Source of the DNA: Anaerolineales bacterium
Lineage (GTDB): Bacteria; Chloroflexota; Anaerolineae; Anaerolineales; Villigracilaceae
Direction: 5' to 3'
Assembly (NCBI GenBank): GCA_014860745.1
Contig: JACZJC010000035.1
Span: 10,354 to 74,353, forward strand
DNA: 64,000 nt
Below are positions 18,428 through 52,512 of this stretch, in pieces. The translations under genes were made by a program, and so were the position numbers. The notes under the pieces were generated by a model. It did no database searches and was not told the origin of the DNA. It was given only the letters and a program-made list of their open reading frames with translations. Each line of letters starts with the position of its first letter. Within the stretch, counting starts at the first letter, position 1.

Positions 18428-19348
18428 TTACCATTCACTGTCGGAGTAGAAAAGATGCGAAACCGATTCGGTGATCTTGCGGATGCGGCTTACCTCTTGT
18501 GGAGTGAGAATCTGTTTCCAATTATCGAGGCTGGCGCGACTGTCCAGTTTTACGGAATAGGTTTTGTTCCTGGCAAGTTTGGCGGGATTCTCCGAACTGC
18601 TCGAGTTGAGGATTATGTTTTTGACTCTTTCGTCGAAATCCAGGCCAAGGGATTCGTACAAGGTTTTGAAACCGGGCAGCGGGTTCAGGGAGAGGTCTTC
18701 GTGGCGGACGATGTTGAAGTCCGGGAACAATTCCCGGGCGTCATGAACGAAGCGGTGAATCAGCCGCCAGAGCAAGGCCGCCTGGCTGACAACATCCCCG
18801 GAGCGGGTCGATTCCATTTCGGCGCGGTCTTCTTCCAGATGATCGCGCATGAGCAGGGGCTGGTTGAGCAGGTTGTTGAAATCAAAAGGCCAGTTCAAGC
18901 GTTTGAGGCTGCTGACCACCGCGGCGGGATGGCGGATGGAAACGACCACCCGGCAATCCAATTTTTTGGCAAACCAGGGAGCCGAGAAAACCGCGAAGGG
19001 GTCTTTGAGCAGGGCACGCTGGCCGCGCATGGAGCCATTGAAGAAAATGCGAAAATCGCGGCCCATGCGCAGGAAATCCTTGAACGAGCGGACGGATTTT
19101 ATTTCCAGCCAGGTATGGTATTGGAAATCGAGCAGTTCATGAAATGCGGGCAGGTACTCCGATTCGTTTTCGGCGTTGATGTAGGTGTACCAGTATTTAA
19201 CCGGGGCGCGGAACACGCCGGGGCGGTGCAGCACATTCAACGGCTCGCTGACATAGGCGGTATCGGCATCGGCGGCAAGCATTTTGCCGACCCAGGTTGT
19301 GCCGCTGCGGTGCGTACCTGTGACGAGGATGGGACGGAGATTATTCAC
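18428..19348 (-). CDS. Sulfotransferase family protein
   Basis: GTHRSGTTW, LLKDP, RHPAAVVSS, RHEDL. Confidence 0.85.
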   Translation of the reverse strand: MNNLRPILVTGTHRSGTTWVGKMLAADADTAYVSEPLNVLHRPGVFRAPVKYWYTYINAENESEYLPAFHELLDFQYHTWLEIKSVRSFKDFLRMGRDFRIFFNGSMRGQRALLKDPFAVFSAPWFAKKLDCRVVVSIRHPAAVVSSLKRLNWPFDFNNLLNQPLLMRDHLEEDRAEMESTRSGDVVSQAALLWRLIHRFVHDARELFPDFNIVRHEDLSLNPLPGFKTLYESLGLDFDERVKNIILNSSSSENPAKLARNKTYSVKLDSRASLDNWKQILTPQEVSRIRKITESVSHLFYSDSEW

Positions 19349-20822
19349 TCAAGTATTCCAATATATCTTCTTCGAATATGGTGCGGGCGCGGATCGATTC
19401 GACGCCGTAATAATTTGCCGCGCAAACATTCACCCAATGTTCGGGGTTGTTATCGATTTCCTTCACATGGAACACGCCCGAAAAACTGGGAATGACAACC
19501 TCTTTTTCAGCGAGGGCGGCGTGGCGCAAAATATACGCGTTGCGCAGATCCCACAACTCGGCGCGGTGACGATACTCGGAGGCGTTGGCGCTGTACATGT
19601 TCACAGCCGCCCGCAGGGGATAGATGACGGCCAGCGCGGCGAGAAGCACAGCAACAACCCACTGCCAAAGCGCTGGGTTCGTTTTGAACCGAAGGCGGCT
19701 TAATGATAATCCAAATAATGCGCCTTCCAGCATGGCGGCAGCGATGATAAGCGTGCGCGCGAGGAAACGCATCCGTTCGACGGGGAATCCCTGCCCATAG
19801 ACGCTGGGCGAAAAACCAGCCGCGATCAACAGCCAGACCAAAATCGGGAGGAGCAGGACGGCAAAGGGCATCGCTCGTTTTTGACTTTGAGTTAATTCCA
19901 GGGAATTTTCCTGGCGGTGAAGCCAGACCAATAGCAAAGGAATCAGCATGGAGAGGATGGTCGGAAGCGGAAGAGTCCGCAAGGTATCGACGATAAAGAG
20001 ATAGCTGAAGAAAAACGAATTCCCCAGCAGGGTAAAAATATTCAAGGTCTTTTCCTGGGCCACGGTTGCGCTGGCAGGCGAGAGGAGCATGACGACCAGG
20101 CCAAGCAGCGCGCCCGCAAGGGATGCCCCCAGCAAGGCAAGGTATTTTTGTTTGAAAGAAGGTCCTGCAAATAACCAGGCGGCAAGTATCAGCAAAGGCA
20201 GGGCGGTGAGCATGGTGGCTGTGGGCGGTTCGGAAAAACCCGCAATGACAAAGGTTGCGAAAAAGAGGAAGAGATATGTGAACCAGGATGGCGAGCTGGT
20301 TTCGGAGAGCCGCGCCTGCCGCATAAAAAATGCAAAGAGGAAGGAGCCAAATACCAATGGCGCAAAATGGGTCATCATGGACGAGCGCCAGAAAACGGTC
20401 TGAAATAAGTTGGGGGCTTCCAGCATGCTGAAAAAACCAAGCGCCAGACCGAGGAACAAGTCGGTTTGAAAGGACCAGTTAATTTTGAGAAACTTCCGAA
20501 ATTCGCGCGCGCCCCAAACGAGACCGCCAAACCAGAGCACGATCATGCCGGTGATGGTGACCTGCAAATTATTTTCGCCAAGCCGCTCGCTAAAGCCGAC
20601 AAAGAGAATGTTCGAGTAGCGGTTGGCGGAACGCCAGGTGCCCACGGAGTAACGCTCGATCACGGCATTGAAAGGCGAAGAGCTATTGACGCGCACCGCC
20701 TCGCAGTAATCATCCGCAACATAGCGGGAGAACGACCCGAGGTAGGCGATCACAGCAAAATAAGCCAGGGGACCGATAATACTAATTAAAACAGCGAGGT
20801 TCAGCGGTTTTTTCAGATTCAT
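19341..20822 (-). CDS. Polytopic membrane protein, DUF6056/GT-C-like
   Basis: Many TM helices; acidic ADDYC motif after the first TM. Confidence 0.55.
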   Translation of the reverse strand: MNLKKPLNLAVLISIIGPLAYFAVIAYLGSFSRYVADDYCEAVRVNSSSPFNAVIERYSVGTWRSANRYSNILFVGFSERLGENNLQVTITGMIVLWFGGLVWGAREFRKFLKINWSFQTDLFLGLALGFFSMLEAPNLFQTVFWRSSMMTHFAPLVFGSFLFAFFMRQARLSETSSPSWFTYLFLFFATFVIAGFSEPPTATMLTALPLLILAAWLFAGPSFKQKYLALLGASLAGALLGLVVMLLSPASATVAQEKTLNIFTLLGNSFFFSYLFIVDTLRTLPLPTILSMLIPLLLVWLHRQENSLELTQSQKRAMPFAVLLLPILVWLLIAAGFSPSVYGQGFPVERMRFLARTLIIAAAMLEGALFGLSLSRLRFKTNPALWQWVVAVLLAALAVIYPLRAAVNMYSANASEYRHRAELWDLRNAYILRHAALAEKEVVIPSFSGVFHVKEIDNNPEHWVNVCAANYYGVESIRARTIFEEDILEYLSE

Positions 20823-20888
20823 TATTTTGGCAACTCGTTTTATTTTTATTTCCTCAACTGAGTCTGTGAGCTCGCGGCGATAACAGAA

Positions 20889-22463
20889 CTATGGACTGCG
20901 CAGGTCGTAGATCACGTAACCGTCACCTTCGGCAAAAATCGGGAAGGCGGCCAGTTTTTGTTCGAGGAAGGGCTGGCGCTCGAGGTCGGTAAAGTCGGTG
21001 ACTACGAATAAATCTTTTTTGGCGGCAAGCTCGGCGAATTGATTCTCAAAATCGGTTTGCGCGCCGCGCAGATCGTTGTGGTAGAGCTGGTCACCGTAGG
21101 TGGGCCAGGAGGTGATGCTGCGCCAGCCCCAGTAGGCCAGGCGCGAGCCGTAATCCTGCGTGAGACCTGCCAGATTATACCCGTCCACCTTTCGGCTGAT
21201 CTCGGCCCACATCTGCGCTTCGGGGCGGTAGTCCACCGAGTTCATTTGGGTGCGAATGTTCCAGAGAGACATGAAGATTCCAGTAAGCAGTAAACAGTAA
21301 ACAGTGAAGCGAAGCCAGTGAGTTGTGGTAAGTTTGGCGAGTTGTTTGAAAAACAAATCTGCAAGAGGCGCAATGGATAAAGCCGCGATGGGAATCAAGG
21401 GCAGAGAGTAGTAGTCGTGGGTGGAGATGTGATAGTTGAAGTAAATGCCAAAGAGGGCGTACCCAGCCCACAGCGAAAGAATGAAGCGGCGCCCTTTATC
21501 CACAAAGAAAAAGATTCCCAGCAGGGCAAACATCAAAGGGATGCCGCCGATGACGAGGTTGAGCATGTTCACCCATCCAAAGTAATACGATGGATTTAGA
21601 AAATAGGCGGGGATGAAACGTCCGCCGAACTGCTGGCCGAGATAACCCGCGATGAAGACTCCGTAGATGAAGTAGGCCGCGCCGGGCAGGATGCCAAGAA
21701 CGGTCATGACGTAAATTTGGGGCTGTTTCAACACCTCAGGCAGTGACCGACGCCCAAGCAGAAGCGCGCCAACACCGCCGCCGATGATGAAGAAGGCCGC
21801 GACGAATTTGATGAAGATGGCGAAACCGCCGAAGAGACCGGCGAGGATGGCGAAGGACCAACTTTTTAACCACGAAGGGTCACGAAGGGTCACAACGTTT
21901 TGATTCCTTTGTGTTCCTTTGTCTCCTTCGTGGTCGAGAGGTTTGTTTAATGTGTTCGCCCACTCGTAGATTGCCCACCAGAAGAGGATGATGAGCATGA
22001 CCATGAGCGGATCGGGTTGGAAGGAGCGGCTGGCGGTGACGGCATACGGGAGGAAAAGGTAGAAGGCTGTGGCGGCGAGGGCGCCGTCGGTGGAGGTGAG
22101 TCTGCGGGCGAGTAAAAAGAGGAAGACCGCGCCGATGACCCAAAAGGCGGAGGAATAGATGCGCGAGACCCAAAGTTGTTCGCCTGTGAATTTGTAGGTG
22201 AAGGCGACGATGCGTTCGAAGAATTCAGGCTCCACCGAGGCGCGGAATTTCCACTGCTGAATGGCAAAACTGCGCTCGTCGGCTGGGGCATCGGTGAGGG
22301 ATTGGTAGTACATGCCGCGGGCTTTGAGGGCCGAGAGCAATTGCCGCGTGGGGTGAAAATCGAGCGGCAGATCGGTGAGGTCGTACAGGCGGATGGCGAG
22401 GCCGAGGCCAAGGATGAGGATGAGGGCGGCTATCGAGGTGAAAAATGAGGGGCGCTCGTTCAT
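20889..22463 (-). CDS. ArnT/PMT-like (GT39/GT83) GT-C glycosyltransferase, paralog A
   Basis: DFHPTRQ first-loop motif, SRSFQPDPLM, HDYY; clearly paralogous to 30673-32205. Confidence 0.75.
   Translation of the reverse strand: MNERPSFFTSIAALILILGLGLAIRLYDLTDLPLDFHPTRQLLSALKARGMYYQSLTDAPADERSFAIQQWKFRASVEPEFFERIVAFTYKFTGEQLWVSRIYSSAFWVIGAVFLFLLARRLTSTDGALAATAFYLFLPYAVTASRSFQPDPLMVMLIILFWWAIYEWANTLNKPLDHEGDKGTQRNQNVVTLRDPSWLKSWSFAILAGLFGGFAIFIKFVAAFFIIGGGVGALLLGRRSLPEVLKQPQIYVMTVLGILPGAAYFIYGVFIAGYLGQQFGGRFIPAYFLNPSYYFGWVNMLNLVIGGIPLMFALLGIFFFVDKGRRFILSLWAGYALFGIYFNYHISTHDYYSLPLIPIAALSIAPLADLFFKQLAKLTTTHWLRFTVYCLLLTGIFMSLWNIRTQMNSVDYRPEAQMWAEISRKVDGYNLAGLTQDYGSRLAYWGWRSITSWPTYGDQLYHNDLRGAQTDFENQFAELAAKKDLFVVTDFTDLERQPFLEQKLAAFPIFAEGDGYVIYDLRSP
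21869..21934. repeat. 66-bp palindromic repeat inserted in frame in GT paralog A
   Basis: Terminal 10-bp inverted repeat accacgaagg...ccttcgtggt with internal cacgaaggg repeats; length is 22 codons. Confidence 0.7.
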
Positions 22464-22505
22464 GGGAGTGGTTATTGTATCGTGAATGGAGGGAATCGGA
22501 GAATT

Positions 22506-22610
22506 GGAGGTTAGTGATTGGAGATTGGAGAATGGTGATTGGAGATTAGGGATTGGAGATCGGAGATTAGAGATTAGGGATTGGAGATTGGAGATTGGAG
22601 ATTGGTAATT
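22506..22610. repeat. Tandem heptamer tract, 15 degenerate units, consensus GGAGATT
   Basis: Direct reading ggaggtt agtgatt ggagatt ggagaat ... ggagatt ggtaatt. Confidence 0.9.
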
Positions 22611-22634
22611 GAAAGTTAGGGAGAATTTTCTGTG

Positions 22635-22663
22635 TTGACCCTCCCTATGCGAGTGCGTATAAT
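22635..22663 (+). promoter_or_regulatory. Near-consensus sigma70 promoter driving the cassette array (Pc-like)
   Basis: TTGACC (22635-40) - 17 bp - TATAAT (22658-63), about 70 bp upstream of the first GTT core site. Confidence 0.8.
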
Positions 22664-22666
22664 TTG

Positions 22667-22741
22667 CTTATGCGATTTTAAGCTATTGCCGCCATCCATA
22701 AGCACTTATACGGAATGCGGCACTCTAATCCCGTGTTAGCC
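22667..22741 (+). other. attI-like recombination site
   Basis: CTCTAATCCCGTG|TTAGCC aligns with attI1 CCCTAAAACAAAG|TTRRRY, with CTAA at the same distance from G|TT; upstream direct repeats cttatgcg (22667) and cttatacg (22705). Confidence 0.6.
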
Positions 22742-22798
22742 CGTTTCGTTGAACAGATTCATCTCTGCAAACATTAACTCATATGGGAGATAAGTAAA

Positions 22799-23236
22799 AT
22801 GCTTGAAAAAGTAGATTGGTTCAGTTTTGTCTTTGGCGGTGTTGTTATTGCCTTTATTGTAAATATTATTTCCAGCTTTGCGCAGCCAAAAATTGAAACT
22901 TGGCTAGAGAAATATAATGCTAAGCGTCGGAATAAAAATACATCAATTCGGAAGGCTTTCGAAGCGGAAGTACAACGATTATCGGACAATAACCATGAAG
23001 AACTAGTAATAATTCAAACTAGAAATTTCTTCTCCATCTTATATTGTACAAGTATTGTCTTTGTGATGGGATTTCTTATAACAGCAATTATAACTACACA
23101 AAGTGCAACAAAATACTTTCTTTTAGTGGGTGAGTTAATTGCAAGTATATTTTCGATTCTACTAATGCAAAAAGTTAATAAAATCAGTCAGTTATTAAAG
23201 GCTGTCGGCAATCAAAAGAATAGACCAAAGGTCTAA
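22799..23236 (+). CDS. Cassette 1: small membrane protein, unknown function
   Basis: AT-rich ORF with 3 hydrophobic segments lying between attI and attC1. Confidence 0.65.
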   Translation: MLEKVDWFSFVFGGVVIAFIVNIISSFAQPKIETWLEKYNAKRRNKNTSIRKAFEAEVQRLSDNNHEELVIIQTRNFFSILYCTSIVFVMGFLITAIITTQSATKYFLLVGELIASIFSILLMQKVNKISQLLKAVGNQKNRPKV

Positions 23237-23259
23237 ATGTTTCCACCAAATCATGAACG

Positions 23260-23375
23260 GGCTAACACAGCGTGCGGCACGCTTCGCCGCGCTTCGTGTT
23301 CTGCTCCAAGCAGAGTCCACGCCTGCCCCAGCGCCAACGTCCGTAGGGCAAGTCCGCGAACGCAAACTGTTGGGC
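23260..23375 (+). repeat. attC site 1
   Basis: Left box (aacg)ggctaac, right box gttgggc; 116 bp; contains the ctgctc-caagcagagtcc module shared with the other sites. Confidence 0.8.
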
Positions 23376-23410
23376 TGTTCCTTGCATAAATATCTAAAAA
23401 AGGGAAAACG

Positions 23411-24385
23411 ATGTCGCAAAATATTTGTCCATCCTGCAAAAAAGAATTAGTCAACGATTTTCGATTTTGTCCCCATTGTGGATACGACTTGAAAAAGCCA
23501 GTTGTTTGTTCAAACTGCCAATATTCTAATGAAGGCAATTCTAAGTTTTGCCAAGAATGTGGCACGCCTCTCTATTCAACAAGCAATACAAAAGCAGAAA
23601 CAAAGAATGCAGAAGCAGAACCAGAAATCCTCGTAGGAATGGAACCTCCTTCAAAAAATGGAATTACGATTGAATTTCCATTTTCAACCGCACAGTCTTT
23701 TGATTTTGCAGTTGAAGCCGCTAAAAAATTTCCAACCTTTAAGAAATTTGGGCAAGATAAAAAGGCTCTATATCGAATTACCATCCAGCCTAATGAAATG
23801 GAGACTCTCGCAGAATTATTAGAGCATTTAAAAGGCTGGAGAAAAAGAACCGTTTATGTTAATGGGGAAAAAGTAACATGGGATTCTGTTTTTGCTTTTG
23901 GATGGTGTCACGAAAAGAAAAAAGCAAGTTTCAAACCTGAGTTCTATTGTTTTGGCTATGAAAATGAATATCAACTTAATGCTTGGGGTTGTATTCAGGC
24001 TAATTTATCGTTTACGGAAAATGCTCAATGGTTTTGTTGGGGAAAATGGCTGAGCGATAAAGGCGATTGGAAGTTTGACAAAGAACGTATTTTTCACGAA
24101 TTACAAAAGACGCTGTATCAATATAGGTTTTGTCCTGCATTACGCCCCGAACTAATTCAGGATGTTCTCAATGCGCTTCCAGATGTAGTAAATCCAACAA
24201 AAGATAAAAACTGGAAATTCGTTGAGAGATGGGGTGAAGAAAATTCTCCTGGTCTAACCGTGACTGTAAATCGTTTTGGCTTCAATGAAAAAGTTGTGAT
24301 GAAAGGCGTTTCGCCGAATGGGCAAGGCGCAATAAAAGAAATGGCAAAGCGCATGAAATTTCCGTTATCATATATAGGTAGATAA
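23411..24385 (+). CDS. Cassette 2: double zinc-ribbon protein with unknown C-terminal domain
   Basis: CPSC..CPHC and CSNC..CQEC zinc-ribbon pairs; AAAGGG SD. Confidence 0.75.
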   Translation: MSQNICPSCKKELVNDFRFCPHCGYDLKKPVVCSNCQYSNEGNSKFCQECGTPLYSTSNTKAETKNAEAEPEILVGMEPPSKNGITIEFPFSTAQSFDFAVEAAKKFPTFKKFGQDKKALYRITIQPNEMETLAELLEHLKGWRKRTVYVNGEKVTWDSVFAFGWCHEKKKASFKPEFYCFGYENEYQLNAWGCIQANLSFTENAQWFCWGKWLSDKGDWKFDKERIFHELQKTLYQYRFCPALRPELIQDVLNALPDVVNPTKDKNWKFVERWGEENSPGLTVTVNRFGFNEKVVMKGVSPNGQGAIKEMAKRMKFPLSYIGR

Positions 24386-24393
24386 AAAACACA

Positions 24394-24553
24394 GCCTAAC
24401 AAAGCGTGTACCCCGTCATCGCGCTGCGTGTGGTACGCTTCGCAGTCAAGAATTTCGCGCAACGTGGCTTCGAGTTTTTTTCTGCTCACAAGCAGAGTCC
24501 CCTCTCCAGCGCCACAGCCCGTAGGGCAAGTCCGCGGACGCAAACCGTTAGGC
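24394..24553 (+). repeat. attC site 2
   Basis: gcctaac ... gttaggc, 160 bp, shared internal modules. Confidence 0.8.
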
Positions 24554-24603
24554 AACCCGTCTTGATATAATAATACTCATCAAATTGAATGGTAGGAAAT
24601 GCA

Positions 24604-24882
24604 ATGCCAATCAAAGTTAGTGTATCTAATCAAACAGCCCATTTCCTTGACATGGTATTTACGTTAGGGTTGGGAATCGTCAGTTTGTATATCTCCATTT
24701 TTGTTGCCTCAGCCACTCGGCAAGAATCAGTATTCCTTGTTTTAGCAAGCATTGTTCACTTTTATTTTTTCAAAAAAGCCTTCCAGAATGAAGTAAACCT
24801 TTGGAGTTGGTCATTACCTACTATAATTTGGGCTATCCCTGCTTATTATTCTATTTGGATGATTATCAAATATCTTTTGTAA
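24604..24882 (+). CDS. Cassette 3: small membrane protein
   Basis: Three hydrophobic helices; AGGA SD before ATG 24604 (alternative start 24589). Confidence 0.6.
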   Translation: MPIKVSVSNQTAHFLDMVFTLGLGIVSLYISIFVASATRQESVFLVLASIVHFYFFKKAFQNEVNLWSWSLPTIIWAIPAYYSIWMIIKYLL

Positions 24883-25090
24883 GTAGTTCTCGGCTTGCCT
24901 TTTTTCTGTATAGTACTAGTAAAAGTAGTAAGTTACCTTTTTTCAGCTGGCGTTTTGGTTAGTATATAAAATTCCCGTGTTCAGCAAGCGTTTCAGTTGG
25001 CCATATTTTTTGGATTTTGGTAATAACAAAGTCGCGGGTAAAATCCAGTCTAGTTTGCGGTGTTGTCTTTTTTCTGCCAGCGGGCTGGTT

Positions 25091-25257
25091 GCCTACCAAA
25101 GCGTGCACCTCGTCTTCGCGGCGTGCAGCACCTACGGCAAACAGTTTTTTGGCTTCGAGTTTTCTCTGCTCCCAAGCAGAGTCCAAGCCCCAGCGCCAAA
25201 GTCCCGTAGGGCAAATCCATGATAGCAATACCCCTTCGGGGCACAAGCCCGTTGGGT
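25091..25257 (+). repeat. attC site 3 (left box mutated AAC to ACC)
   Basis: gcctacc ... gttgggt, 167 bp. Confidence 0.75.
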
Positions 25258-25308
25258 GGCTGGCACCGAAGTGCAAAAACCATCTTCAATCAAAGTAGGT
25301 AATCGAAA

Positions 25309-25803
25309 ATGATTTACTTTATTCGTGGCAAAGAAAGCGGCAATATCAAGATTGGCTTTTCGATTAACCCTGATAAGCGTAAATCTAATTTGCAAACAGC
25401 CCATTACGAAGAACTTGAGTTTATCGGGATTATGAATGGTTCTTTGGATGATGAAGCAAGAATAAAGAAGATGTTTTCAGAATTCAATATTCGGGGTGAA
25501 TGGTATCGCCCAGTTCGAGAAGTAATGGATTATGTAAAAAAGAATGCCAACAAGCCAAAAATGAATATTGTTTCGAGTCTTGGAAACGATGAATACAGAA
25601 TCATACTTGCTGAACCCATTAAATACACAATGAATTTTTTCCTTTTGGCAGGTACTCACAATATGAGAGTTTTGAGTGATAAAGAATTAGAAATGGTATT
25701 TGGTATTGAAGGAAAAAAGAAAGTTTTATTGAGTTGGCTAGAAAGTCTTCAAGTTGTCACCAAAGAAGCGATGGATGAGTTTGAATCATTGATGACGGAC
25801 TAG
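25309..25803 (+). CDS. Cassette 4: GIY-YIG superfamily nuclease (T5orf172/MUG113-like)
   Basis: N-terminal IYFI..IKIGFS.NP.KR..LQT..E.....F....RGEW pattern. Confidence 0.75.
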   Translation: MIYFIRGKESGNIKIGFSINPDKRKSNLQTAHYEELEFIGIMNGSLDDEARIKKMFSEFNIRGEWYRPVREVMDYVKKNANKPKMNIVSSLGNDEYRIILAEPIKYTMNFFLLAGTHNMRVLSDKELEMVFGIEGKKKVLLSWLESLQVVTKEAMDEFESLMTD

Positions 25804-25928
25804 CATTTTGTTTTACAGTTTTTGGGAAGATTATTTTTTGTCCTTGCCAAAGGTCAAGGTAAATGTAATAATTTTGTCAAAATGGCGGTGTCGTTTTTTT
25901 TAGCCAGCGAGTCTTGCAGTCAAACGCC

Positions 25929-26069
25929 GCCCAACAAAGCGGCATCCCGTCTTCGTTTCGTGTCAAGCATTTCGCGAAAGGTGGTTTCGAGTTTTTTCTG
26001 CTCCCAAGCAGAGTCCATGCCCGAGTGTCAAAGCCTCCTTGAGGGGATGATATCGCAAGCCCGTTGGGC
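25929..26069 (+). repeat. attC site 4
   Basis: gcccaac ... gttgggc, 141 bp. Confidence 0.8.
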
Positions 26070-26105
26070 TGCAAAACAATATCTGTAAGTGAAAGGAAGA
26101 TAATC

Positions 26106-26516
26106 ATGAATATGAAACGCGTAGCAGCATTTATATATGCAATTGTTTCCACAGGCGTCGTTGCCTTTCAAATCGCATTGGCGGCTGGCGCACCTTTGGG
26201 TGCGTATGCGATGGGGGGTGCTTTTCCAGGTCAGTTTCCACCCGCACTTCGCATCGCAGCACTCGTCCAAGCGGCATTGCTTGTTGGAATGGTTTTTGTT
26301 GTGTTGGCCCGGGCAGGGCTCATCTTACCTGGTTGGTCGCGAGTGACACGTTGGCTCGTCTGGTTCGTCGTGGCGTTTGCCGCGTTGAGTTTATTCCTCA
26401 ATTTAATTACACCAAGTGCAAGTGAGCGAGCCATTTGGGCGCCCACAGCACTGCTCTTGCTGTTAAGCAGTGCTGTAGTGGCTTTCAGTAAATCTACAGA
26501 ACCCCCTGCTCGATAA
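26106..26516 (+). CDS. Cassette 5a: four-helix membrane protein
   Basis: Hydrophobic ORF with GAP.G..AMGG..PG motif; GAAAGGA SD before ATG 26106. Confidence 0.7.
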   Translation: MNMKRVAAFIYAIVSTGVVAFQIALAAGAPLGAYAMGGAFPGQFPPALRIAALVQAALLVGMVFVVLARAGLILPGWSRVTRWLVWFVVAFAALSLFLNLITPSASERAIWAPTALLLLLSSAVVAFSKSTEPPAR

Positions 26517-26580
26517 CGCATGCAGCGCGCATCATTCGCCCAAAATTAAATTTCGGGCGAATGATCAAGGAGTAAAAGCC

Positions 26581-27201
26581 ATGACAATCAGTAAATGGGC
26601 TGGGGTTGCATCGTTTTTACTAGCAGTGTCATTTGTTGTTGCACCATTGATCTACCTAACTGGAAATTTGCGAGATACCCTTGGCGTATTTACATATAAT
26701 CTGGCAGATTTTCTTTATGGCCCAGTTGTATCAGCCAGTCTAATCACTGTGGTCTATGTGCTTCGTGAACGCATCGGCGAGAGTGCGTTTCGGCGCATGG
26801 ACCTGGCGCTCCTGGCGGCTGTCCTTTCAGCAGCAGGCATGGCGGCAGTCGCTTTTATCCGTGCATCTAATCGCCACTACCATTTGATACATCCTGAGCT
26901 GCATTTGGAAAACTCTACAACTGTCCTCATCGTTTGGACTACGCTTGTGACAGGCGTGAACGCGATCGGATTTCATTTTCTAGGATGGACGTTTGTGTTA
27001 CTTGGCTCAGCCAGCTGGACATCTCGCCTCTTTCCCCGCCCGTTAAATGTATTGTATTTTCTAGCAGGTGTCTCGTCCCTGTTTGTTTATCTGTTTCCAG
27101 AACTCGAAGGATTTGTTTTATTGCTTGGCACTATAATAGGTGTCTGGCAGGGTATTTTGCTCTGGAATCATGACACCTTCCAATACGCAAAAGCAGGCTG
27201 A
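26581..27201 (+). CDS. Cassette 5b: polytopic membrane protein (DUF4386-like)
   Basis: About six TM helices; AAGGAG SD; stop codon overlaps the attC5 left box. Confidence 0.7.
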   Translation: MTISKWAGVASFLLAVSFVVAPLIYLTGNLRDTLGVFTYNLADFLYGPVVSASLITVVYVLRERIGESAFRRMDLALLAAVLSAAGMAAVAFIRASNRHYHLIHPELHLENSTTVLIVWTTLVTGVNAIGFHFLGWTFVLLGSASWTSRLFPRPLNVLYFLAGVSSLFVYLFPELEGFVLLLGTIIGVWQGILLWNHDTFQYAKAG

Positions 27202-27325
27202 CACAGCGTGCAGCCCGTCTTCGCTTCGCTCCGCGCCCTTGCAGGATGCTGCCTGCCGCTGGTGACTTCCCCTTCGCTGCGGGGATGATATCGCAATACC
27301 CCTTCGGGGCACAAGCCCGTTGGGC
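27196..27325 (+). repeat. attC site 5 (degenerate left box GGCTGAC)
   Basis: ggctgacacagcgtgc (compare attC1 ggctaacacagcgtgc) ... gcccgttgggc; 130 bp. Confidence 0.7.
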
Positions 27326-27371
27326 AGTTCCTTGCATAAAAACCATCCATTTTGAATAGAAAATCATTTTC

Positions 27372-28010
27372 ATGGCATTAATCATTTTCGACTTTGACGG
27401 CGTTCTTGCGGATACTCTTAATGACTTAATTCAGTTTGGACAGGAAGTTTGTGACGAATTAGGTATAAAACACGCGGTAAATAAAGATGACCTGAGCAAT
27501 CTTGAGATTATGTCCTTCGCAACATTTGGGCGGGCGTGCGAAGTCCCTGAACATCTTGTGGATGAATTTGTCCAAAGGTGCTTGAAACGTTTCGCCGAAA
27601 AGGAATCCCCGCCTGCCATTTTCAATGGGTTGAGCGATATTGTCAGAAATTTTGCCATTAAGAACAAGCTTGCCATTATCACAACCAATTCATCGCAAAA
27701 TGTAAATGCTTTTCTTATCGAACACGGTCTGGATGAATGTATTCATGCAGTGTTCGGAATCGATATTCCTGGTTCCAAGGCACAGAAAATATCGATCGCA
27801 CGGGATCAGTTTTCAGCGGATTCAGAGCGGGAATCGGTGTTTATGATTGGCGATTCGTTAAGTGATGTTCTTGCAGCAAAAGAAGCGTCAGTTACCAGCA
27901 TTGCAGTTACATGGGGGCATCAGAGTTTGGAACATTTACTTCGCGGTGATCCCGATTATGTGGTTCATTATCCGCTGGATCTTATTGAGGTGATTGAAAG
28001 AACAGCATAA
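27372..28010 (+). CDS. Cassette 6: HAD family hydrolase (phosphoglycolate phosphatase-like)
   Basis: DFDGVLAD motif I, TTN motif II, IGDS..D motif IV. Confidence 0.88.
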   Translation: MALIIFDFDGVLADTLNDLIQFGQEVCDELGIKHAVNKDDLSNLEIMSFATFGRACEVPEHLVDEFVQRCLKRFAEKESPPAIFNGLSDIVRNFAIKNKLAIITTNSSQNVNAFLIEHGLDECIHAVFGIDIPGSKAQKISIARDQFSADSERESVFMIGDSLSDVLAAKEASVTSIAVTWGHQSLEHLLRGDPDYVVHYPLDLIEVIERTA

Positions 28011-28057
28011 GAGAGGCGTCTTTTCACTTGTCATGGCACTATATGAAAAACCGCCAA

Positions 28058-28210
28058 ACAAATCACCCTGGGCAATCGGCAGGATAATGCAGCCTTCCGA
28101 AACCATGCCGGGACGCACATGCCTTCTGCCATGAAGTGGTATATTACATATAAGAATCGTATCCCCCTCCCGCTCCCCTGCGAGGCAGATATCGCAAACG
28201 GACGAGCCGC
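28058..28210 (+). repeat. Degenerate attC remnant
   Basis: aaccgccaaacaaa resembles the expected left box (aactgcccaac); gatatcgcaa module at the 3' end; no intact GTT box. Confidence 0.35.
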
Positions 28211-28233
28211 ATAATTAGAATGGATGAACTTTC

Positions 28234-29100
28234 ATGAAGAAAACAGACCTTGTTTCACTGATCGTCTTTCCTTTTTTGATATTCGTAGGGGCTCTCTTTG
28301 CCTATTCAGGAAGCCGGGGAGGGAGCTCGGTTTATGGGCTTCCCCTATTTGCATGGTTGGTGGGGCTGACCTTTCTGATCCAATGGCTGGTCTTTATCCC
28401 AGCCTTTCTACTGCAAACCGAAAAATTTTTCGATCTAACGGGCAGTCTCACGTATATTTCCGTGACAATTATTGCGGTATTTTTCAGTGCAGGCATTAAT
28501 GGAAGATCCATCCTCCTGGCTTTCCTTGTGGTGGTCTGGGCAATCCGCCTGGGAACGTTTCTATTCACCCGAATCAGAAAAGCAGGAAAGGATGATCGGT
28601 TTGATGAGATAAAGCCTTCCTTTATCCGCTTCCTAAATGTTTGGACCATCCAGGGCTTGTGGGTAGCATTGACAATGGGCGCTGCATTGGCCGCCATTAC
28701 TGCCGCCTACCGAAAAGATTTGGATTGGTTCGCCGTCATCGGCTTCGTGGTATGGATTTTTGGATTTGCCATTGAGGTCGCAGCCGACTCTCAAAAAAGT
28801 CGCTTCAACGCAAACCCGGAAAACAAGGGAAAGTTTATCCGAACAGGGCTATGGTCACGATCCCGCCACCCCAACTACTTTGGTGAGATCGTCCTCTGGG
28901 TTGGCATTGCGGTTATCGCATTCCCCGTCCTGCAAGGCTGGCAGTGGGTCACCCTGATTTCCCCGGTTTTTGTCGCACTGCTTATCACCCGGGTAAGTGG
29001 AGTTCCCCAGCTTGAAACCAAGGCGGATAAAAAATGGGGCGGGCAGGAAGATTATGAGGCCTATAAGAAGAGAACGCCTGTACTGATTCCCCGATTGTGA
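28234..29100 (+). CDS. DUF1295 / steroid 5-alpha-reductase-like membrane protein (distal cassette)
   Basis: WAIRLG.FLF.RI, GLWSRSRHPNYFGE motif. Confidence 0.85.
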   Translation: MKKTDLVSLIVFPFLIFVGALFAYSGSRGGSSVYGLPLFAWLVGLTFLIQWLVFIPAFLLQTEKFFDLTGSLTYISVTIIAVFFSAGINGRSILLAFLVVVWAIRLGTFLFTRIRKAGKDDRFDEIKPSFIRFLNVWTIQGLWVALTMGAALAAITAAYRKDLDWFAVIGFVVWIFGFAIEVAADSQKSRFNANPENKGKFIRTGLWSRSRHPNYFGEIVLWVGIAVIAFPVLQGWQWVTLISPVFVALLITRVSGVPQLETKADKKWGGQEDYEAYKKRTPVLIPRL

Positions 29101-29248
29101 TTCCAATCGAAAGCGGCATGCAGCAGAGGGGGGCAACCGCAATGACCAATCATTGTCCACGCCCATTTGGTTGTCGAATGCCGGGTAAATCTTCTCGAAA
29201 TTCAAAAATAGATGGAACTTCCCACCCAGGAAAGGAACTGTACCATCC

Positions 29249-29632
29249 ATGAGTCCAGCGTCCATGTCACGATTGGAATCAGCGACCCGTATTGTCCTTG
29301 AATTCAATGAAGCCTTCAACCGCCACGATGTGGCAGGGATGATGCATTTGATGAGCGACAACTGCATCTTCCAGAACACTTCCCCAGCTCCCGACGGCAC
29401 GGCCTACGCGGGGAAGGAAGCGGTCACACAGTTTTGGGAAGACTTCTTCCGCGAGTCGCCGCAAGCCCGCATCGAGATCGAGGAAATCTTCGGCTTTGGG
29501 AATCGGTGCGTGATGCGCTGGACCTATAAATGGGTGGACGCGGCGGGGCAAAATGGACATGTGCGGGGAGTTGATATATTCCAGATTCGGGACGGGCTGA
29601 TCTATGAAAAGTTGTCCTACGTTAAGGGTTAA
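29249..29632 (+). CDS. SnoaL/NTF2-like family protein (distal cassette)
   Basis: F.EAFNRHDV pattern, G..AV..FW, RGVDIF.IRDG.I.EK. Confidence 0.8.
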   Translation: MSPASMSRLESATRIVLEFNEAFNRHDVAGMMHLMSDNCIFQNTSPAPDGTAYAGKEAVTQFWEDFFRESPQARIEIEEIFGFGNRCVMRWTYKWVDAAGQNGHVRGVDIFQIRDGLIYEKLSYVKG

Positions 29633-29639
29633 TCTATCT

Positions 29640-30569
29640 TTACTTTTTATATTGGTTCGCCCTGTCCTTTAAGACCACTTCCCTCAATTTCTCCAGACCC
29701 ATTAGATTCAAAACAGCAGAAATAATAATATTCATCCGCGCCAGAGCTGTTGGCGGGTGGATGAGAAGCGCGCGCCCCCATGCGGAAAGTGCTTTTGAAG
29801 GCTGGCCGCCGTCGAGCAGGTAACGCGCATCCACGCGGTGGGCTGAGGCGCGCGCGCGGCGGTTCACTTTTGAAAGCATAGGCACAAGATTATCATCTTG
29901 TGAAATCGTTTCTAAAATTTTGAAGGCTTCGCGGCCAAATTCAGCGGCCTTGGCGCGGTTCTTGGCCTCGGGATGGTAGCGCGCCGCAGACCAGGTCTGG
30001 TCCACGTGCAAAATTTTTCCATGCCGGGCGATTTGAATCCACAAAAGGTGGTCGAGGAGAAAATGGAATGATGAATCGAGCCCATTTGTTTTTTGCAGGG
30101 CAGAGCGGCGCATAAATACGGCGGGCTGACCGATGATCTGAAAACACAACAAATCTTCGAGGGTCAATGGTTTGTAATTCAGGGTATTGAAAGTTTGGCC
30201 ATTCTCATCCACAGCGAGCATGTTTCCATAAACCAATACCACATCGGGGTTTTCATCAAAGATTTTCACCGCCGCGCTGACCGTTCCGGGGAGATAATAA
30301 TCATCCGAATTGAGCCAGGCCACAATTTCGCCAGAGGCGCGGGCAAAGCCTTTGTTGATCGCGTCCGCCTGCCCGCGGTCTTGTTCTGAAACCCAATACG
30401 CCAATTTACTTTCGTATTTTTTTATGATGTCTACACAGCCATCGGTGGAAGCGCCGTCCACAATGATGTATTCGACGCGCGGATAATCCTGATTCAAAAC
30501 AGACAGGATCGTCTGCTCGAGATAGGCGGATTGATTGTACGAAGGGGTGATGATGGAAACGAAGGTCAT
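29640..30569 (-). CDS. Glycosyltransferase family 2
   Basis: VSIITPSYNQ, VDGASTDG, WLNSDD; the longer ORF-track N-terminus reads through a repeat. Confidence 0.88.
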   Translation of the reverse strand: MTFVSIITPSYNQSAYLEQTILSVLNQDYPRVEYIIVDGASTDGCVDIIKKYESKLAYWVSEQDRGQADAINKGFARASGEIVAWLNSDDYYLPGTVSAAVKIFDENPDVVLVYGNMLAVDENGQTFNTLNYKPLTLEDLLCFQIIGQPAVFMRRSALQKTNGLDSSFHFLLDHLLWIQIARHGKILHVDQTWSAARYHPEAKNRAKAAEFGREAFKILETISQDDNLVPMLSKVNRRARASAHRVDARYLLDGGQPSKALSAWGRALLIHPPTALARMNIIISAVLNLMGLEKLREVVLKDRANQYKK

Positions 30570-30578
30570 AATTATTTT

Positions 30579-30668
30579 ATGTCGTTGCGAGGGCGCTCTT
30601 GTTCTTCGCCCGAAGCAATCCCCTGTTGCGAGAAGATTGCTTCGGGACGAACACCCTCGCAATGACAT
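30579..30668. repeat. Palindromic repeat, GTCATTGCGAG...GAAGCAATC...GATTGCTTC...CTCGCAATGAC family, copy 1
   Basis: Terminal IR atgtcgttgcgaggg/ccctcgcaatgacat and inner IR ccgaagcaatc/gattgcttcgg. Confidence 0.85.
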
Positions 30669-30672
30669 GCAA

Positions 30673-32205
30673 TTATTTTCTCAGATCATACAATACATAC
30701 CCATCGCCTTGCGCGGCAATCGGGTATCCATCCAAAATTTCTTTCAAGTCGGGCTGTTTATCCAGCTGACCAAAGGCCGTCACCAGGAAATAATCCATGC
30801 CTTCGGTCAGTTCCATAAATTTTTCAGCGTTATTTTTACCTGGGTTGCGCGCCTCGCTCAGTCCCGTCGCCAGCGGCCAAAGACTTACCCTGCGCCAGCC
30901 ATACATCATCAAACGGTAGCCATAATCCTGCGTCAGCGCCATCACATTTCCATCGGAAGGAATCACCCCGCCCACTTCGCTCCAAAACGCAGGCTCATGT
31001 CGAAAACTTTCCGCGATTAAAACCGACCGCGACACATAAGCCTGATAACCGATCACAGCCACAGTCAACGCGATAAAGCCCACGCGTCCGACTCCGCTGT
31101 TAGCTGCCACACTTTCAACAAGCGGATTCAACACCACGGCCAATCCCAGCGCAATGATGGGAATCAGTTGAATATGGTAGTAACTGTGCGTGTACATCTG
31201 AAAGGGCAACGTCAACCCGTACAGCAAATAGCCGATCCACAAACTGACCAGCAGCCAGCGCATGCGCGGACTGGCGATCAGCGCGCCAGCAATGCTCAGG
31301 AAGATGATCGTCAGCCCGAAAAGAGTCCCGAGGAAGGCCAGCCATTTGGTATAAAAATCCGTGCTGGCGATGAGGTTGATGAGCGCCACAGTCCATGAGA
31401 AAAAATATTCGGTGGAGCGGCCCTGGTTGAGAAGAACATAATAAACCGCCGCAGGCAAAACCATGATGACGATCATCGTCCACACTTGTTTTGATTTCCA
31501 GAAATTCTTTCCAAGCGTGAAGAGCACCAGGGCGATTGCAGCCGAACCGACGAAGAAGGCAATGACGATCTTTACGAACGTCGCCAGCCCTAGGAAAACC
31601 CCGGCGAGGATGGCCCAGCGCCAACTTGACCTCACCCCCGACCCCTCTACCCTAGCGGGCACACGTCCTAAAAGGAGAGGGGAGCAAGATTCACTCCAGC
31701 GATAAAGAAAATAAATACCGACGACAAAAGCGGATGTCATCAACGGGTCAGGCTGAAAAGAGCGGCTGGCCTGCACCGAAAACGGCAGGATAAGATAATA
31801 GGCCAGCGCGATCAACGCCGCCCACGGAGAGGTTTCGCGGCGCATCAAATCAAACAAAGCAACACCTGCCGCGAGCCAGAAGAGAGTCACCCACACTCGG
31901 GCGGCGGCAATGTTCTCGCCTGTGATGAGGTAGGTGTAAGCAACAATCGATTCAATGACAGGCGGTTCATACTTCCCGACTGAACGCGCAAACGATGCTG
32001 CCAGGTTGCGTTGTTCCGTGGTTGCGGATGGCAGGATGGAATAATAAATATCCCGCGCCACCAGTGAATTGCGGAGCTGGCGCGAAGGATGAAAATCCAG
32101 CGGAGGGTCGGTAATATCGAGCATTCGCAGAAATCCGCCCAGGGCGAGGAGAAGGATGAAGCTGATGAACCAGCTGCGAGTTTGAGGTTGAAGCGGATTT
32201 TTCAT
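30673..32205 (-). CDS. ArnT/PMT-like GT-C glycosyltransferase, paralog B
   Basis: DFHPSRQ, SRSFQPDPLM, HSYY; paralog of 20889-22463. Confidence 0.75.
   Translation of the reverse strand: MKNPLQPQTRSWFISFILLLALGGFLRMLDITDPPLDFHPSRQLRNSLVARDIYYSILPSATTEQRNLAASFARSVGKYEPPVIESIVAYTYLITGENIAAARVWVTLFWLAAGVALFDLMRRETSPWAALIALAYYLILPFSVQASRSFQPDPLMTSAFVVGIYFLYRWSESCSPLLLGRVPARVEGSGVRSSWRWAILAGVFLGLATFVKIVIAFFVGSAAIALVLFTLGKNFWKSKQVWTMIVIMVLPAAVYYVLLNQGRSTEYFFSWTVALINLIASTDFYTKWLAFLGTLFGLTIIFLSIAGALIASPRMRWLLVSLWIGYLLYGLTLPFQMYTHSYYHIQLIPIIALGLAVVLNPLVESVAANSGVGRVGFIALTVAVIGYQAYVSRSVLIAESFRHEPAFWSEVGGVIPSDGNVMALTQDYGYRLMMYGWRRVSLWPLATGLSEARNPGKNNAEKFMELTEGMDYFLVTAFGQLDKQPDLKEILDGYPIAAQGDGYVLYDLRK
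31630..31683. repeat. 54-bp REP-like element inserted in frame in GT paralog B
   Basis: cctcacccccgacccctctaccc...ggagagggga matches the reverse complement of the queG element; encodes SPLLLGRVPARVEGSGVR. Confidence 0.7.
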
Positions 32206-32231
32206 AAGGGGATGAATCAAAACATTAAACG

Positions 32232-33050
32232 TTATTTGAAGAGGGAATTGTAGTCCACTTTGGGGAAGACGGTCAGTTTCCCGCCGATGGTCGCATCCAC
32301 GATCTCGCGGCCCGCCTTGCGATAGGCTTCGCGCGCCATGATGTAACCGACTTCGGAAGTGTCGAGATCAGGTAATTGCCAGCGGACGCCCTTGCCAAAA
32401 TAATTGGGCGAAACATGGTTGGGGTCATCGCCTTCCGAGACGACGATTTTATTCGCCTCGCCTTTGGATGTGAAATTATGATCGACGCCGATGAGGACGG
32501 CCTTTTCAAAGCCCATGTGATAGGCAAGTTGAAGCGCAAAGGTAGTGACGGTGGCTCCCTCCCAAACGCGTCCTGTTACCGTTTTGGAAAATCGCGGACC
32601 GGTATAGGAGGTGTAGATAAAGATTGGCAATTGGGTAACTGGCAATTGAGCTGAGAAGTAGCGGCGCGAACGCCATGCCAAAAATTTTGGTATTGGAAGC
32701 GCGAGGATATCGTCGGCGAATTGCTCAATGACGAGATCGTTGATGGAGCAAAAATAAGTGGTGGTAAAACCGAGTTCGGGGAAAAGAAGATAGAAGCGGT
32801 TCATGCCGAACGTGAATTCGTTCTTGAGTTTGGCGAGGTCCGTTTGTTTGAGGCTGGGGCCGTTGCCGATGATGAAGGCACGTTCGCCTTTGTGAATATC
32901 TTTTAACGCGGCAAGGCGGCGAATACTTTCACGCCGCCAGGGATGCAGGTATGCGGCTGGCAATTGAGGCAGACGCCGAATGGCATCATTCGTGTTGCGG
33001 GCAAGGTTCCAGAGCGGGGCGGGAATTACAGATTTGAGGGATCGTTTCAT
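32232..33050 (-). CDS. DUF115/Maf-like protein, candidate nonulosonic acid transferase
   Basis: AFIIGNGPSL motif, TFGMNR, LAYHMGF..VLIGVDH. Confidence 0.7.
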   Translation of the reverse strand: MKRSLKSVIPAPLWNLARNTNDAIRRLPQLPAAYLHPWRRESIRRLAALKDIHKGERAFIIGNGPSLKQTDLAKLKNEFTFGMNRFYLLFPELGFTTTYFCSINDLVIEQFADDILALPIPKFLAWRSRRYFSAQLPVTQLPIFIYTSYTGPRFSKTVTGRVWEGATVTTFALQLAYHMGFEKAVLIGVDHNFTSKGEANKIVVSEGDDPNHVSPNYFGKGVRWQLPDLDTSEVGYIMAREAYRKAGREIVDATIGGKLTVFPKVDYNSLFK

Positions 33051-33051
33051 G

Positions 33052-33423
33052 TCAGTTGAAATATATTTTTCTTAGAGAGATCAACACCCACAGGATGATC
33101 CCATCGATGATCAGCGCGGTGATGTAAAGAGGTTCAGGAACGCCGGTAAATGCCAGGGCGATATTCAAGACAACCACGACAAGCGCAAAAATATACGTCC
33201 ACTTCTCTTTTTGAGCCAGCATCTTTCCGCCAAGGAACATGGCAGTCACATTCACCAGCAGGAAGATACCAACCAGCAGCGTGGAGAGTCCATTGTTATC
33301 GAGCAGCATTTCCACAAGAATACCTGCAGAAATGACCAGCCAAAGCACGGCATTCATATAAAAAAGGACACGCGCAATGTTTCCGCGCTGCGCAAAGATT
33401 ACCTTTTCCCTTTGTTTTCTCAT
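33052..33423 (-). CDS. Small membrane protein (four TM helices)
   Basis: Hydrophobic ORF coupled to its neighbours by overlapping start/stop codons. Confidence 0.6.
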   Translation of the reverse strand: MRKQREKVIFAQRGNIARVLFYMNAVLWLVISAGILVEMLLDNNGLSTLLVGIFLLVNVTAMFLGGKMLAQKEKWTYIFALVVVVLNIALAFTGVPEPLYITALIIDGIILWVLISLRKIYFN

Positions 33424-34175
33424 TCGGTGCTCAGCCTCGCCGTTGCGCCGCCATCCACGATCATGGCCTGCCCGGTCATAAAAGAGGATTGTTCGTTGTC
33501 CGCAAGGAAATAAATCGCATGCGCGATCTCTCCAGGGGTCCCCACCCGCCCGTTGACTGTTTTTCGGGCAAGGTTATCGAGCCGTTCCTGCATGTCGCCC
33601 TGGCCTACATGCCCGCGCCCAAGACCAGCGCGCAGCATCGGCGTATCCACAGCCCCGGGCAGAATGGCATTGACGCGGATGTTGTCGGGCGCGAATTCAA
33701 TCGCCATGGCACGAGTCAACGCGAGCAGTCCGCCTTTCGATGCGGCATACGCGGCGATGTTGGCGGAGGTCTGCACGGCATGGACGGAGGACACATTCAC
33801 GATTGCTCCGCCGCTTCCCGCCTTCAACAATGGATGAGCCAATTTGACGCCGAGAAATACTGAACGCAGGTTGGCCGCCATGACGGCATCCCATTCCTCG
33901 ACAGTGGTTTGCACGAGCGGTTTGGCAACCTGCAATGCGGCATTGTTGACAAGCGCATCCAATGACTCGGTGAAGGCCTGGGCTTTTCCAAAGATGGCTT
34001 GCATATCTTCGGGCCGCGAGATATCGGATTGAATGAAGAGGCCGTTATTAGGAAAGCCCTCCCCAAACTCGGACCGGTCCACGCCGATGACGCGCCAGCC
34101 TTTTTCAGCAAAGAGGGCAACGGAGGCGCGGCCAATGCCGCCTGCCGCACCAGTGATGAGAATTGTTTTTGTCAT
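33420..34175 (-). CDS. SDR family NAD(P)-dependent oxidoreductase
   Basis: TGAAGGIG, NNAA, YAASKGG (YxxxK). Confidence 0.9.
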   Translation of the reverse strand: MTKTILITGAAGGIGRASVALFAEKGWRVIGVDRSEFGEGFPNNGLFIQSDISRPEDMQAIFGKAQAFTESLDALVNNAALQVAKPLVQTTVEEWDAVMAANLRSVFLGVKLAHPLLKAGSGGAIVNVSSVHAVQTSANIAAYAASKGGLLALTRAMAIEFAPDNIRVNAILPGAVDTPMLRAGLGRGHVGQGDMQERLDNLARKTVNGRVGTPGEIAHAIYFLADNEQSSFMTGQAMIVDGGATARLSTE

Positions 34176-34185
34176 AGGGTATATA

Positions 34186-52503: not shown

Positions 52504-52512
52504 ATGGATCAC

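Follow-up and report, generated by a model that had tools for sequence, protein, structure and literature searches.

We analysed a 64,000-nt stretch of DNA (hereafter the window) from an Anaerolineales bacterium (Chloroflexota) near 'Candidatus Villigracilis', sourced from a bioreactor metagenome. The window encodes two paralogous GT-C glycosyltransferases (paralogs A and B), each of which carries a short repeat, read in frame and free of stop codons, in the loop between its fourth and fifth transmembrane (TM) helices. An earlier reading of the same DNA (the original prediction) had singled out this pair, and both open reading frames (ORFs) and both inserted peptides were as it gave them. The genes, loops and repeats lie at the following positions.

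20889-22463, minus strand: paralog A, a GT39/PMT_2-type GT-C glycosyltransferase of 524 aa with the A-type insert; ORF intact
21855-21959, minus strand: codons of the TM4-TM5 loop of A (35 aa, ANTLNKPLDHEGDKGTQRNQNVVTLRDPSWLKSWS), a loop tabulated for all orthologs
21860-21943, no strand assigned: A-type hairpin repeat, core 21866-21937; the 66 nt of the original prediction correspond to 21869-21934
30673-32205, minus strand: paralog B, a GT39 (PMT/PMT_2) GT-C glycosyltransferase of 510 aa with the B-type insert
31618-31695, minus strand: codons of the TM4-TM5 loop of B (26 aa, SESCSPLLLGRVPARVEGSGVRSSWR; empty allele SEEQTWK)
31630-31683, no strand assigned: B-type repeat of 54 nt, with its tail at 31630-31641 and its arms at 31642-31651 and 31674-31682

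Both proteins matched Pfam PMT_2 (42.3 bits, E 1.2e-10, for A and 44.4 bits for B, against a cut-off of 26.1 bits), and paralog B additionally matched Pfam PMT (45.1 bits). We place the start of paralog B at the ATG at 32205 (the ORF list instead begins at TTG 32220); the exact 510-aa product is already on record. A and B share 35% identity by BLASTP (E 1e-90), and a single gap of that alignment holds both inserts (residues ~170-198 of A and ~176-198 of B), which agrees with their having been assigned to one and the same inter-helix loop. Orthologs of A were found in Anaerolineales metagenome-assembled genomes at 66-86% identity, and those of B at 75-97%. The AlphaFold 2 (AF2) model of A has ~11 TM helices followed by a C-terminal alpha/beta domain; its best Foldseek matches were STT3 and ArnT (probability 1.0, with low TM-scores of 0.33-0.42), and D28, D31 and H37, straight after TM1, are invariant in A orthologs. 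Both genes sit within a glycan-biosynthesis cluster (window 18428-36300), which further includes a sulfotransferase, a DUF6056 membrane protein, a double-zinc-ribbon protein, a GT2, an MptE-like protein and a short-chain dehydrogenase/reductase, as well as a third PMT_2 protein (34720-36300), 17 orthologs of which were without a loop insert.

The A element (66 nt, 21869-21934) is palindromic, as had been claimed for both inserts: its 10-nt ends are perfectly complementary (ACCACGAAGG/CCTTCGTGGT), its arms consist of three CAC-R-AAGG units apiece, and the hairpin at 21860-21943 folds with -37.3 kcal/mol on the plus strand (z -5.8) and -28.2 kcal/mol on the gene strand (z -4.1). The family follows the pattern (T)TAACCAC-R-AAGG x3 ... 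CCTT-Y-GTG x3 GGTTAA, with the consensus TTAACCAC-n-AAGG-a-CACGAAGG-nn-CACGAAGG, loop, CCTTCGTG-..-CCTTCGTG-n-CCTT-n-GTGGTTAA. The hairpin's G:U asymmetry was also considered as a sign of antisense RNA, a view rejected in favour of a simpler cause, namely that CCTTCGTG gives Arg/Ser codons where CCTTTGTG would give Cys/Leu.

A strict regular expression for the A family proved too narrow (5 loop matches), and a covariance model (R1) was used instead, built solely from 25 metagenome copies, none of them inside a GT-C gene. R1 matched window positions 21866-21937 with 58.2 bits on the plus strand (E ~1e-12) and 52.1 bits on the minus strand; it also matched two further kinds of loop insert seen in orthologs, the TAK and GCGAAG types, which together with the A type form one superfamily. 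The B element gave no match to R1, and the two inserts are therefore members of unrelated families, as had been proposed. A degenerate A pattern found at least 120 stretches in JGI metagenomes; among the matches listed, 80 of the 124 A-type copies lay outside long ORFs, and none of 120 A-type loci encoded a homolog of A or B. Within the 1.4 Mb of Anaerolineales loci that we searched, every superfamily copy outside the A and B loops (16/16) was intergenic or at a gene end, and the A arm was present with other flanks both in the source bioreactor metagenome and in further metagenomes. Rfam gave no match for the window at gathering thresholds and, for ten metagenome loci, only sub-threshold miRNA-like hairpin matches, while full-text literature searches with the repeat sequences and the encoded peptides returned no relevant paper and none naming the A-type family.

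In several relatives, a copy of the hairpin superfamily was also observed in the short spacer that immediately precedes the start codon of the A ortholog (L016:9850-9921, L043:9842-9914, L071:9907-9974, L049:5750-5825 and L080:9818-9885, L numbers denoting loci of relatives), in the variants CACAGAG, CACGAAT and CACAAAGG. The corresponding spacer of the window itself holds no superfamily copy. Local hopping into the loop from the copy upstream of gene A was considered and rejected for the genomes examined, in which the loop copy and the upstream copy of any one genome are different variants.

The B element fits the description of a palindrome less well, as its two ends show no mutual complementarity and it consists of an imperfect hairpin (inner stem of 7+2 bp, enlarged 22-nt loop, 18 nt longer than that of the closest strain) plus the 12-nt tail at 31630-31641 (CCTCACCCCCGA, complement of GGGGGTGAGG), which is half of the outer palindrome of its family. 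This family combines a CCCCTCTCC/GGAGAGGGG inner hairpin with CCTCACCCC/GGGGTGAGG outer arms; complete copies (L019, L075) have one palindrome nested in another, CCCTCACCCC-nn-CCCCTCTCCC-loop-GGGAGAGGGG-nn-GGGGTGAGGG, and half-forms are frequent. Searching the window with the B 19-mer (up to 3 mismatches) gave one other match, at 10735-10753 (0.01 expected), which falls in a second copy.

10716-10755, plus strand: second B-type copy, in frame in queG (10481-11512), peptide SPLPLGEGPGVRV

The same kind of B-type insert is found at the same place in queG of L011. The copy occupies a variable loop just ahead of the conserved YxLGDDYH motif; other queG orthologs have unrelated sequence of similar length there, some of it resembling a decayed copy (PISKEQSPGPV in L022). 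Among relatives, B-type copies also lie between genes (L075:18600-18660, L016:210-250, L063:5060-5120) and, once more in frame, in an 828-aa ORF of L075, and they supply gene 3' ends in L055 and L080.

The occupancy of the loop was followed in the 120 closest proteins for each paralog and in 80 genomic loci collected from species-representative genomes, many of which have both paralogs. Empty loops were found in either gene: for A in 50/120 of the closest homologs (70 occupied) and 36/79 in species-representative genomes, and for B in 25/121 of the closest homologs (96 occupied) and 8/35 in species-representative genomes. In many orthologs the empty loop is 7-8 residues long (e.g., ADEPTSYK, SEEQTWK), so that the net gain over empty alleles amounts to ~27 aa in A and ~19 aa in B. 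The form xxxQTW[K/G] is common to deep A clades and to empty B alleles, and the short loop is therefore ancestral and the inserts derived. Across the orthologs of both paralogs, at least six repeat types were found in this one loop, and the permissive hotspot that the original prediction had offered as one of its two explanations is thus strongly borne out. Orthologs of A hold the A type, the TAK type, other GCGAAG variants, the B type in both orientations, a GGRV/SEERIETT type, an LTYGGRVDGG type and decayed remnants, and those of B hold the B type and a YGVQELAP...SDSK type; most inserts still form hairpins (z down to -9.5).

On a tree computed without the loop, the inserts are distributed in a very patchy manner (the window A-type, L001 and L002 B-type, L003 A-type, L004 empty), with sister loci differing in state (L065 occupied vs L068 empty) and the A-type copy of L018 nested among TAK-type relatives. 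Copies of the A superfamily use each of the three reading phases, and B-type copies occur in either orientation, from which we infer that many of the events were independent, with an estimate of a dozen or more in A alone. Copies stand in tandem in L055 and are nested in L044, L042/L059, L043_B and paralog B of the window, and most of the occupancy of paralog B goes back to one old, vertically inherited insert. Two outcomes had been named that would count against a repeat origin: that all orthologs contain the peptides with codon-level divergence, and that the DNA matches no intergenic repeats. As regards the former, orthologs with an empty loop exist in both genes, yet the B-type peptide is indeed codon-diverged in most paralog B orthologs; as regards the latter, the inserts match dispersed, mostly intergenic families. 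Both parts of this test thus fail and the earlier interpretation stands.

We consider it likely that the inserts are read-through palindromic repeats in a single unconstrained loop of these GT-C enzymes, which would form a recurrent hot spot for several families. Both are small palindromic interspersed repeats, of two families unrelated to each other, that would normally reside between genes in Anaerolineales genomes, and the A family also occurs in many other environmental bacteria. Since the arms of the repeats are free of stop codons whatever the frame, adding a multiple of three nucleotides would merely lengthen a disordered loop and leave the enzyme working. In both paralogs, elements have been gained, exchanged, nested and lost at this place many times across the order. 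Family membership, the ancestral empty state, many independent events, recent turnover and the near-neutrality of the A-superfamily inserts we regard as demonstrated. With less certainty, the loop is probably hit far beyond what tolerance alone would give, as a resident palindrome would attract new insertions, or be gene-converted by copies elsewhere; this attraction is suggested by the nested and tandem copies, by a strain-level replacement confined to the element, and by family swaps within a clade.

Several observations weigh against this interpretation. Comparison of close empty and occupied alleles revealed no recent insertion flanked by a clean target-site duplication; such alleles differ in that the loop is replaced, not simply interrupted. 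The A element is single-copy at >=85% likeness in the source assembly (run X1), and no second A-type copy lies within the window. The counts of copies in the loop are inflated by shared ancestry, yet their excess stays large. The cytoplasmic assignment of the loop would follow from a model of moderate confidence (pLDDT, the predicted local distance difference test score, of 67) and the positive-inside rule, and a PDB sequence search with the ortholog profile matched no solved homolog, for which reason the topology is given without a residue-by-residue ArnT anchor. Finally, translation of the inserts would follow from intact ORFs under purifying selection; RNA runs gave only fragments of related strains and no contig across an insert.

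Turnover at the loop is visible among close strains. Compared with the window, sister strain L201 is 97.2% identical in gene B and has the same right arm and tail of the B element, while the left ~45 nt of the element differ at ~10 positions and by an 18-nt indel; the left half of the window copy has been altered recently. Within a protein cluster at >=96% identity, two B loop alleles coexist (products of 510 aa vs 503/504 aa). The A insert is fixed in 6/6 cluster members at >=94% identity from several sources, and among these the loop is the focus of amino-acid changes. Contigs of related strains in other runs stop at the loop.

Recurrent indels in the A and B proteins were confined to the TM4-TM5 loop. 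When 1,164 ORFs from 81 sources were clustered and the 25 neighbouring families with at least 8 members examined, indel sites elsewhere were minor only, being those of one GT2 family (8/95 members) and one single case. Neither the third PMT_2 paralog nor the DUF6056 membrane proteins of the cluster showed such a site among the orthologs examined. The A and B loops make up less than 1% of the 1.4 Mb searched and nevertheless hold 21/34 B-type hairpins and 15/31 A-superfamily copies. Besides the queG loop, one further gene of the window carries an in-frame hairpin.

52102-52155, minus strand: in-frame hairpin in a PF05159 capsule-biosynthesis-like gene (50854-52512), with 20-nt arms, 95% complementary, peptide RSNDFSRYHKEATEVATTS

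Across 120 orthologs, the PF05159 loop concerned (QSKTLYxG...NWF) contains at least five different repeat-like fillings (RSNDFSR..EVATTS, ETFERSNVQTS, SSKVERQKS, QVHRYTGT and KTLESDS..) and, additionally, nested ATDPQG/ATAPVLTDGV additions, and is a second multi-repeat hot spot. With the PF05159 and queG loops hit too, the phenomenon is a habit of these genomes and not the peculiarity of one gene. In the GT2 family adjoining gene A (e.g., L042, L014 and L003), some in-frame inserts were observed to be hairpin-like (z -4.5 and -6.0).

A stronger and tentative version of the attraction idea, which we hold to be possible and would not call probable, is that the loop acts as a 'landing pad', hairpin repeats of several families integrating into or converting the resident palindrome. 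One ancient insertion in the ancestor of both paralogs might then have founded a self-perpetuating hot spot, the stems of the residents being kept by continuing exchange with genomic copies or by selection on an mRNA hairpin.

Somewhat less probable again is tolerance on its own, that is, random insertion without preference for a site or attraction by palindromes, the most tolerant site simply keeping its inserts for long. It accords with a loop that lacks any conserved residue and is disordered in the model, with the descent of most paralog B occupancy from one old vertical insert, and with the presence of repeats in other tolerant loops (queG, the PF05159 protein, a GT2). Tolerance would explain why inserts survive; it would not explain why about half of the sampled copies of both families lie in one loop, nor the 12 or more independent events in a target of ~24 nt when elsewhere there is about one copy per 90-175 kb. 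Such a site is absent from further polytopic proteins encoded in the cluster (the third PMT_2 paralog, the DUF6056 families), and both the nested or tandem copies and the strain-level replacement restricted to the element likewise speak for more than tolerance.

The two kinds of insert differ in their mode of evolution. A/TAK inserts have a ratio of non-synonymous to synonymous divergence (dN/dS) of 0.59-0.78, with differences spread evenly over codon positions (flanks 0.09-0.13), and their synonymous divergence is about half that of the flanks; between the window and L018, the A elements share 86% identity, as against 59% for their flanks (47% at third codon positions). Stems were analysed in the TAK-type loops of L013, L015, L017, L029, L032 and L036, using a structure derived from these same six sequences. 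Stem positions diverge by only 0.10-0.11 even at third codon positions (flank third positions ~0.35), and the unpaired unit centres by 0.57 whatever the codon position. The A-superfamily inserts thus evolve almost neutrally as protein with their stems kept, a pattern that could result from recent origin or homogenisation of the copies, or from selection on the hairpin. In the TAK inserts, the base at the centre of every ~10-nt unit (GC-N-AAG / CTT-N-GC) was seen to be free to vary in both arms, and the same base is the variable position in the metagenome-wide A family; this may reflect the register of a binding protein, mutation related to CpG, or family variants exchanging sequence. In paralog B orthologs, the B-type insert has a dN/dS of 0.20 and a proportion of synonymous differences of 0.66 (flanks 0.72), and varies mostly at third positions; it is an old insert that has come to behave like ordinary coding sequence.

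Stems that are fixed at third positions around variable unpaired centres, the reduced synonymous divergence and hairpin z-scores that reach -6 to -9 could also mean that the hairpin is useful as a nucleic acid at the TM4/TM5 boundary, in mRNA, DNA or an antisense transcript, possibly as a translational pause during membrane insertion or in the control of mRNA stability. We think this rather improbable, as the orthologs with empty loops (36/79 for A and 8/35 for B) manage without an insert, the B-type hairpin in paralog B decays freely (third-position divergence of 0.61), and unrelated sequences in both orientations do equally well. Young copies or homogenisation by gene conversion predict the same conservation, the stem structure was taken from the very sequences on which it was tested, and no Rfam family was matched.

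The loop was mapped onto the AF2 model of A (mean pLDDT 67), where residues 177-192 form a disordered stretch (pLDDT below 50) between helices 152-173 and 196-218. Topology was assigned by the positive-inside rule and a helix count that took the N-terminus as intracellular. The assignment drew on the invariant acidic motif D28/D31/H37 after TM1, on the invariant K219 and H349-D350-Y351-Y352 on the alternate face, and on the short loops rich in Arg/Lys at residues 120-124, 237-247, 320-326 and 379-382 of A. On this model, the TM4-TM5 loop would be cytoplasmic, on the face opposite the GT-C active site. A cytoplasmic and disordered loop makes the second of the two earlier explanations, repeat-driven diversification of surface-glycan enzymes, unlikely, and we do not retain it.

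In its general form, that the peptides are selected because they alter regulation, partners or specificity of glycan enzymes, adaptive diversification seems to us very improbable. The hot spots do lie mostly in genes of glycan biosynthesis (two GT-C, a GT2, a PF05159 protein), a bias that is a sampling effect, since the loci were chosen around a glycan cluster, and the old B-type peptide of paralog B is moderately constrained. Against it stand the dN/dS values and the even distribution of differences in the A/TAK inserts, the putative position of the loop away from the active site, the fact that queG is hit also, and the nature of the peptides, which are whatever the repeat encodes in the frame in which it landed. 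An origin of the inserts in assembly errors or decaying genes is effectively refuted: the sequences do stem from metagenome assemblies, yet contigs of two independent runs hold the identical sequence, the six A cluster members from several sources share the insert, and the ORFs are intact with flank dN/dS of 0.05-0.13.

Among known systems, the closest are the Rickettsia palindromic elements (RPEs; Ogata et al. 2000), summarised in PMC10969869 as ~100-150 bp long, restricted to Rickettsia and encoding a conserved peptide per family. As with RPEs (PMC10969869), dispersed palindromic repeats stand in frame in unrelated coding genes, are read as an extra peptide, occupy positions compatible with the fold, and have orthologs without the insert, and the parallel drawn by the original prediction thus remains a good one. 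Compared with RPEs, the elements described here are shorter (40-85 bp), reside in a Chloroflexota host, can be read in three phases and both orientations for one and the same element, and belong to several unrelated families that have replaced one another time and again at a single loop in both paralogs; a limited literature search found no report of a multi-family hot spot for RPEs. We therefore say that the elements 'work like' RPEs and do not file them as members, as their size (54-84 nt) and host (Chloroflexota) differ.

Repetitive extragenic palindromes (REPs) and REPINs, which are associated with RAYT transposases, are extragenic by definition and have a GTAG or CGTC end tag (PMC3116915, PMC3733652). 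The likeness lies in short imperfect palindromes that are mostly extragenic, often just 3' of genes, form tandem or nested clusters and have related variants across many genomes. A GTAG or CGTC tag at the 5' end of the palindrome was absent from both types, A-type ends being TTAACCAC...GTGGTTAA (AACCAC...GTGGTT) and B-type ends CCCTCACCCC...GGGGTGAGGG; moreover, the arms here are made of three ~10-nt units, and about half of the copies seen lie inside a coding loop. The small dispersed repeats of cyanobacteria, a description of which is attributed to Elhai et al. in 2008, are reportedly without a known transposase. They are said to be likewise very small, to occur both between genes and in frame inside genes, and to nest in one another; compared by description only, they differ in sequence and phylum. 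We know of no hot spot in one loop across paralogs and orthologs described for them.

Intragenic ERIC (enterobacterial repetitive intergenic consensus) sequences and miniature inverted-repeat transposable elements of enterobacteria and Anabaena (Delihas 2007; Wolk 2010) are derived from insertion sequences (IS) and have terminal inverted repeats and target-site duplications (PMC10969869). They are small inverted-repeat elements with open frames for which in-frame fusion with the host gene is possible (PMC10969869), as it is here. They differ in that here the whole element is the inverted repeat and no parent IS was seen in the window or in the relatives' stretches. Neither target-site duplications nor exact insertion points were definable, since the loop as a whole is exchanged between occupied and empty alleles. 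The novelty lies in the phylum, in a hairpin family that is widespread yet had gone undescribed, and in a hot spot for several families that both paralogs have in common throughout an order of bacteria.

Most known cases of palindromic repeats read in frame within proteins come from Rickettsia. The same phenomenon now appears in free-living Chloroflexota, where one loop has been reused by unrelated families, in two paralogs and throughout one order, with turnover visible between strains whose gene B is 97% identical. The loop thereby offers a natural assay site for the mobility of an environmentally abundant hairpin family that has no Rfam entry and, if the landing pad were true, a defined and repeatedly used natural target for studying how hairpin repeats without a transposase move. 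With near-neutral inserts at one end and, at the other, the older B-type insert and its dN/dS of 0.2, the series is a clean illustration of how selfish DNA becomes ordinary protein sequence. For annotation, length variation at the GT-C and PF05159 loops represents repeat turnover and not a difference in functional domains, and contig breaks tend to fall at the positions of such repeats.

Repeats of such a kind also lie between genes of the cluster, as indicated by one further element.

30570-30677, no strand assigned: nested intergenic hairpin repeat, lying after the paralog B stop and ahead of the probable GT2 start near 30567

It reads GTCATTGCGAGGG...CCCTCGCAACGAC around GAAGCAATC...GATTGCTTC, and the L201 contig stops at it. 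The Pfam GT2 match begins at residue 38 of the long ORF downstream of B, and the GT2 gene is ~33 codons too long in the ORF list because this hairpin is open in frame. Other strong intergenic inverted repeats were observed at window positions 7657-7694, 9032-9069, 6612-6649, 47008-47051, 53497-53556 and 41736-41826. They include perfect palindromes with arms of 17-19 nt and a ATTGGTAA-rich palindrome at a gene junction, and may be terminators or members of other repeat families.

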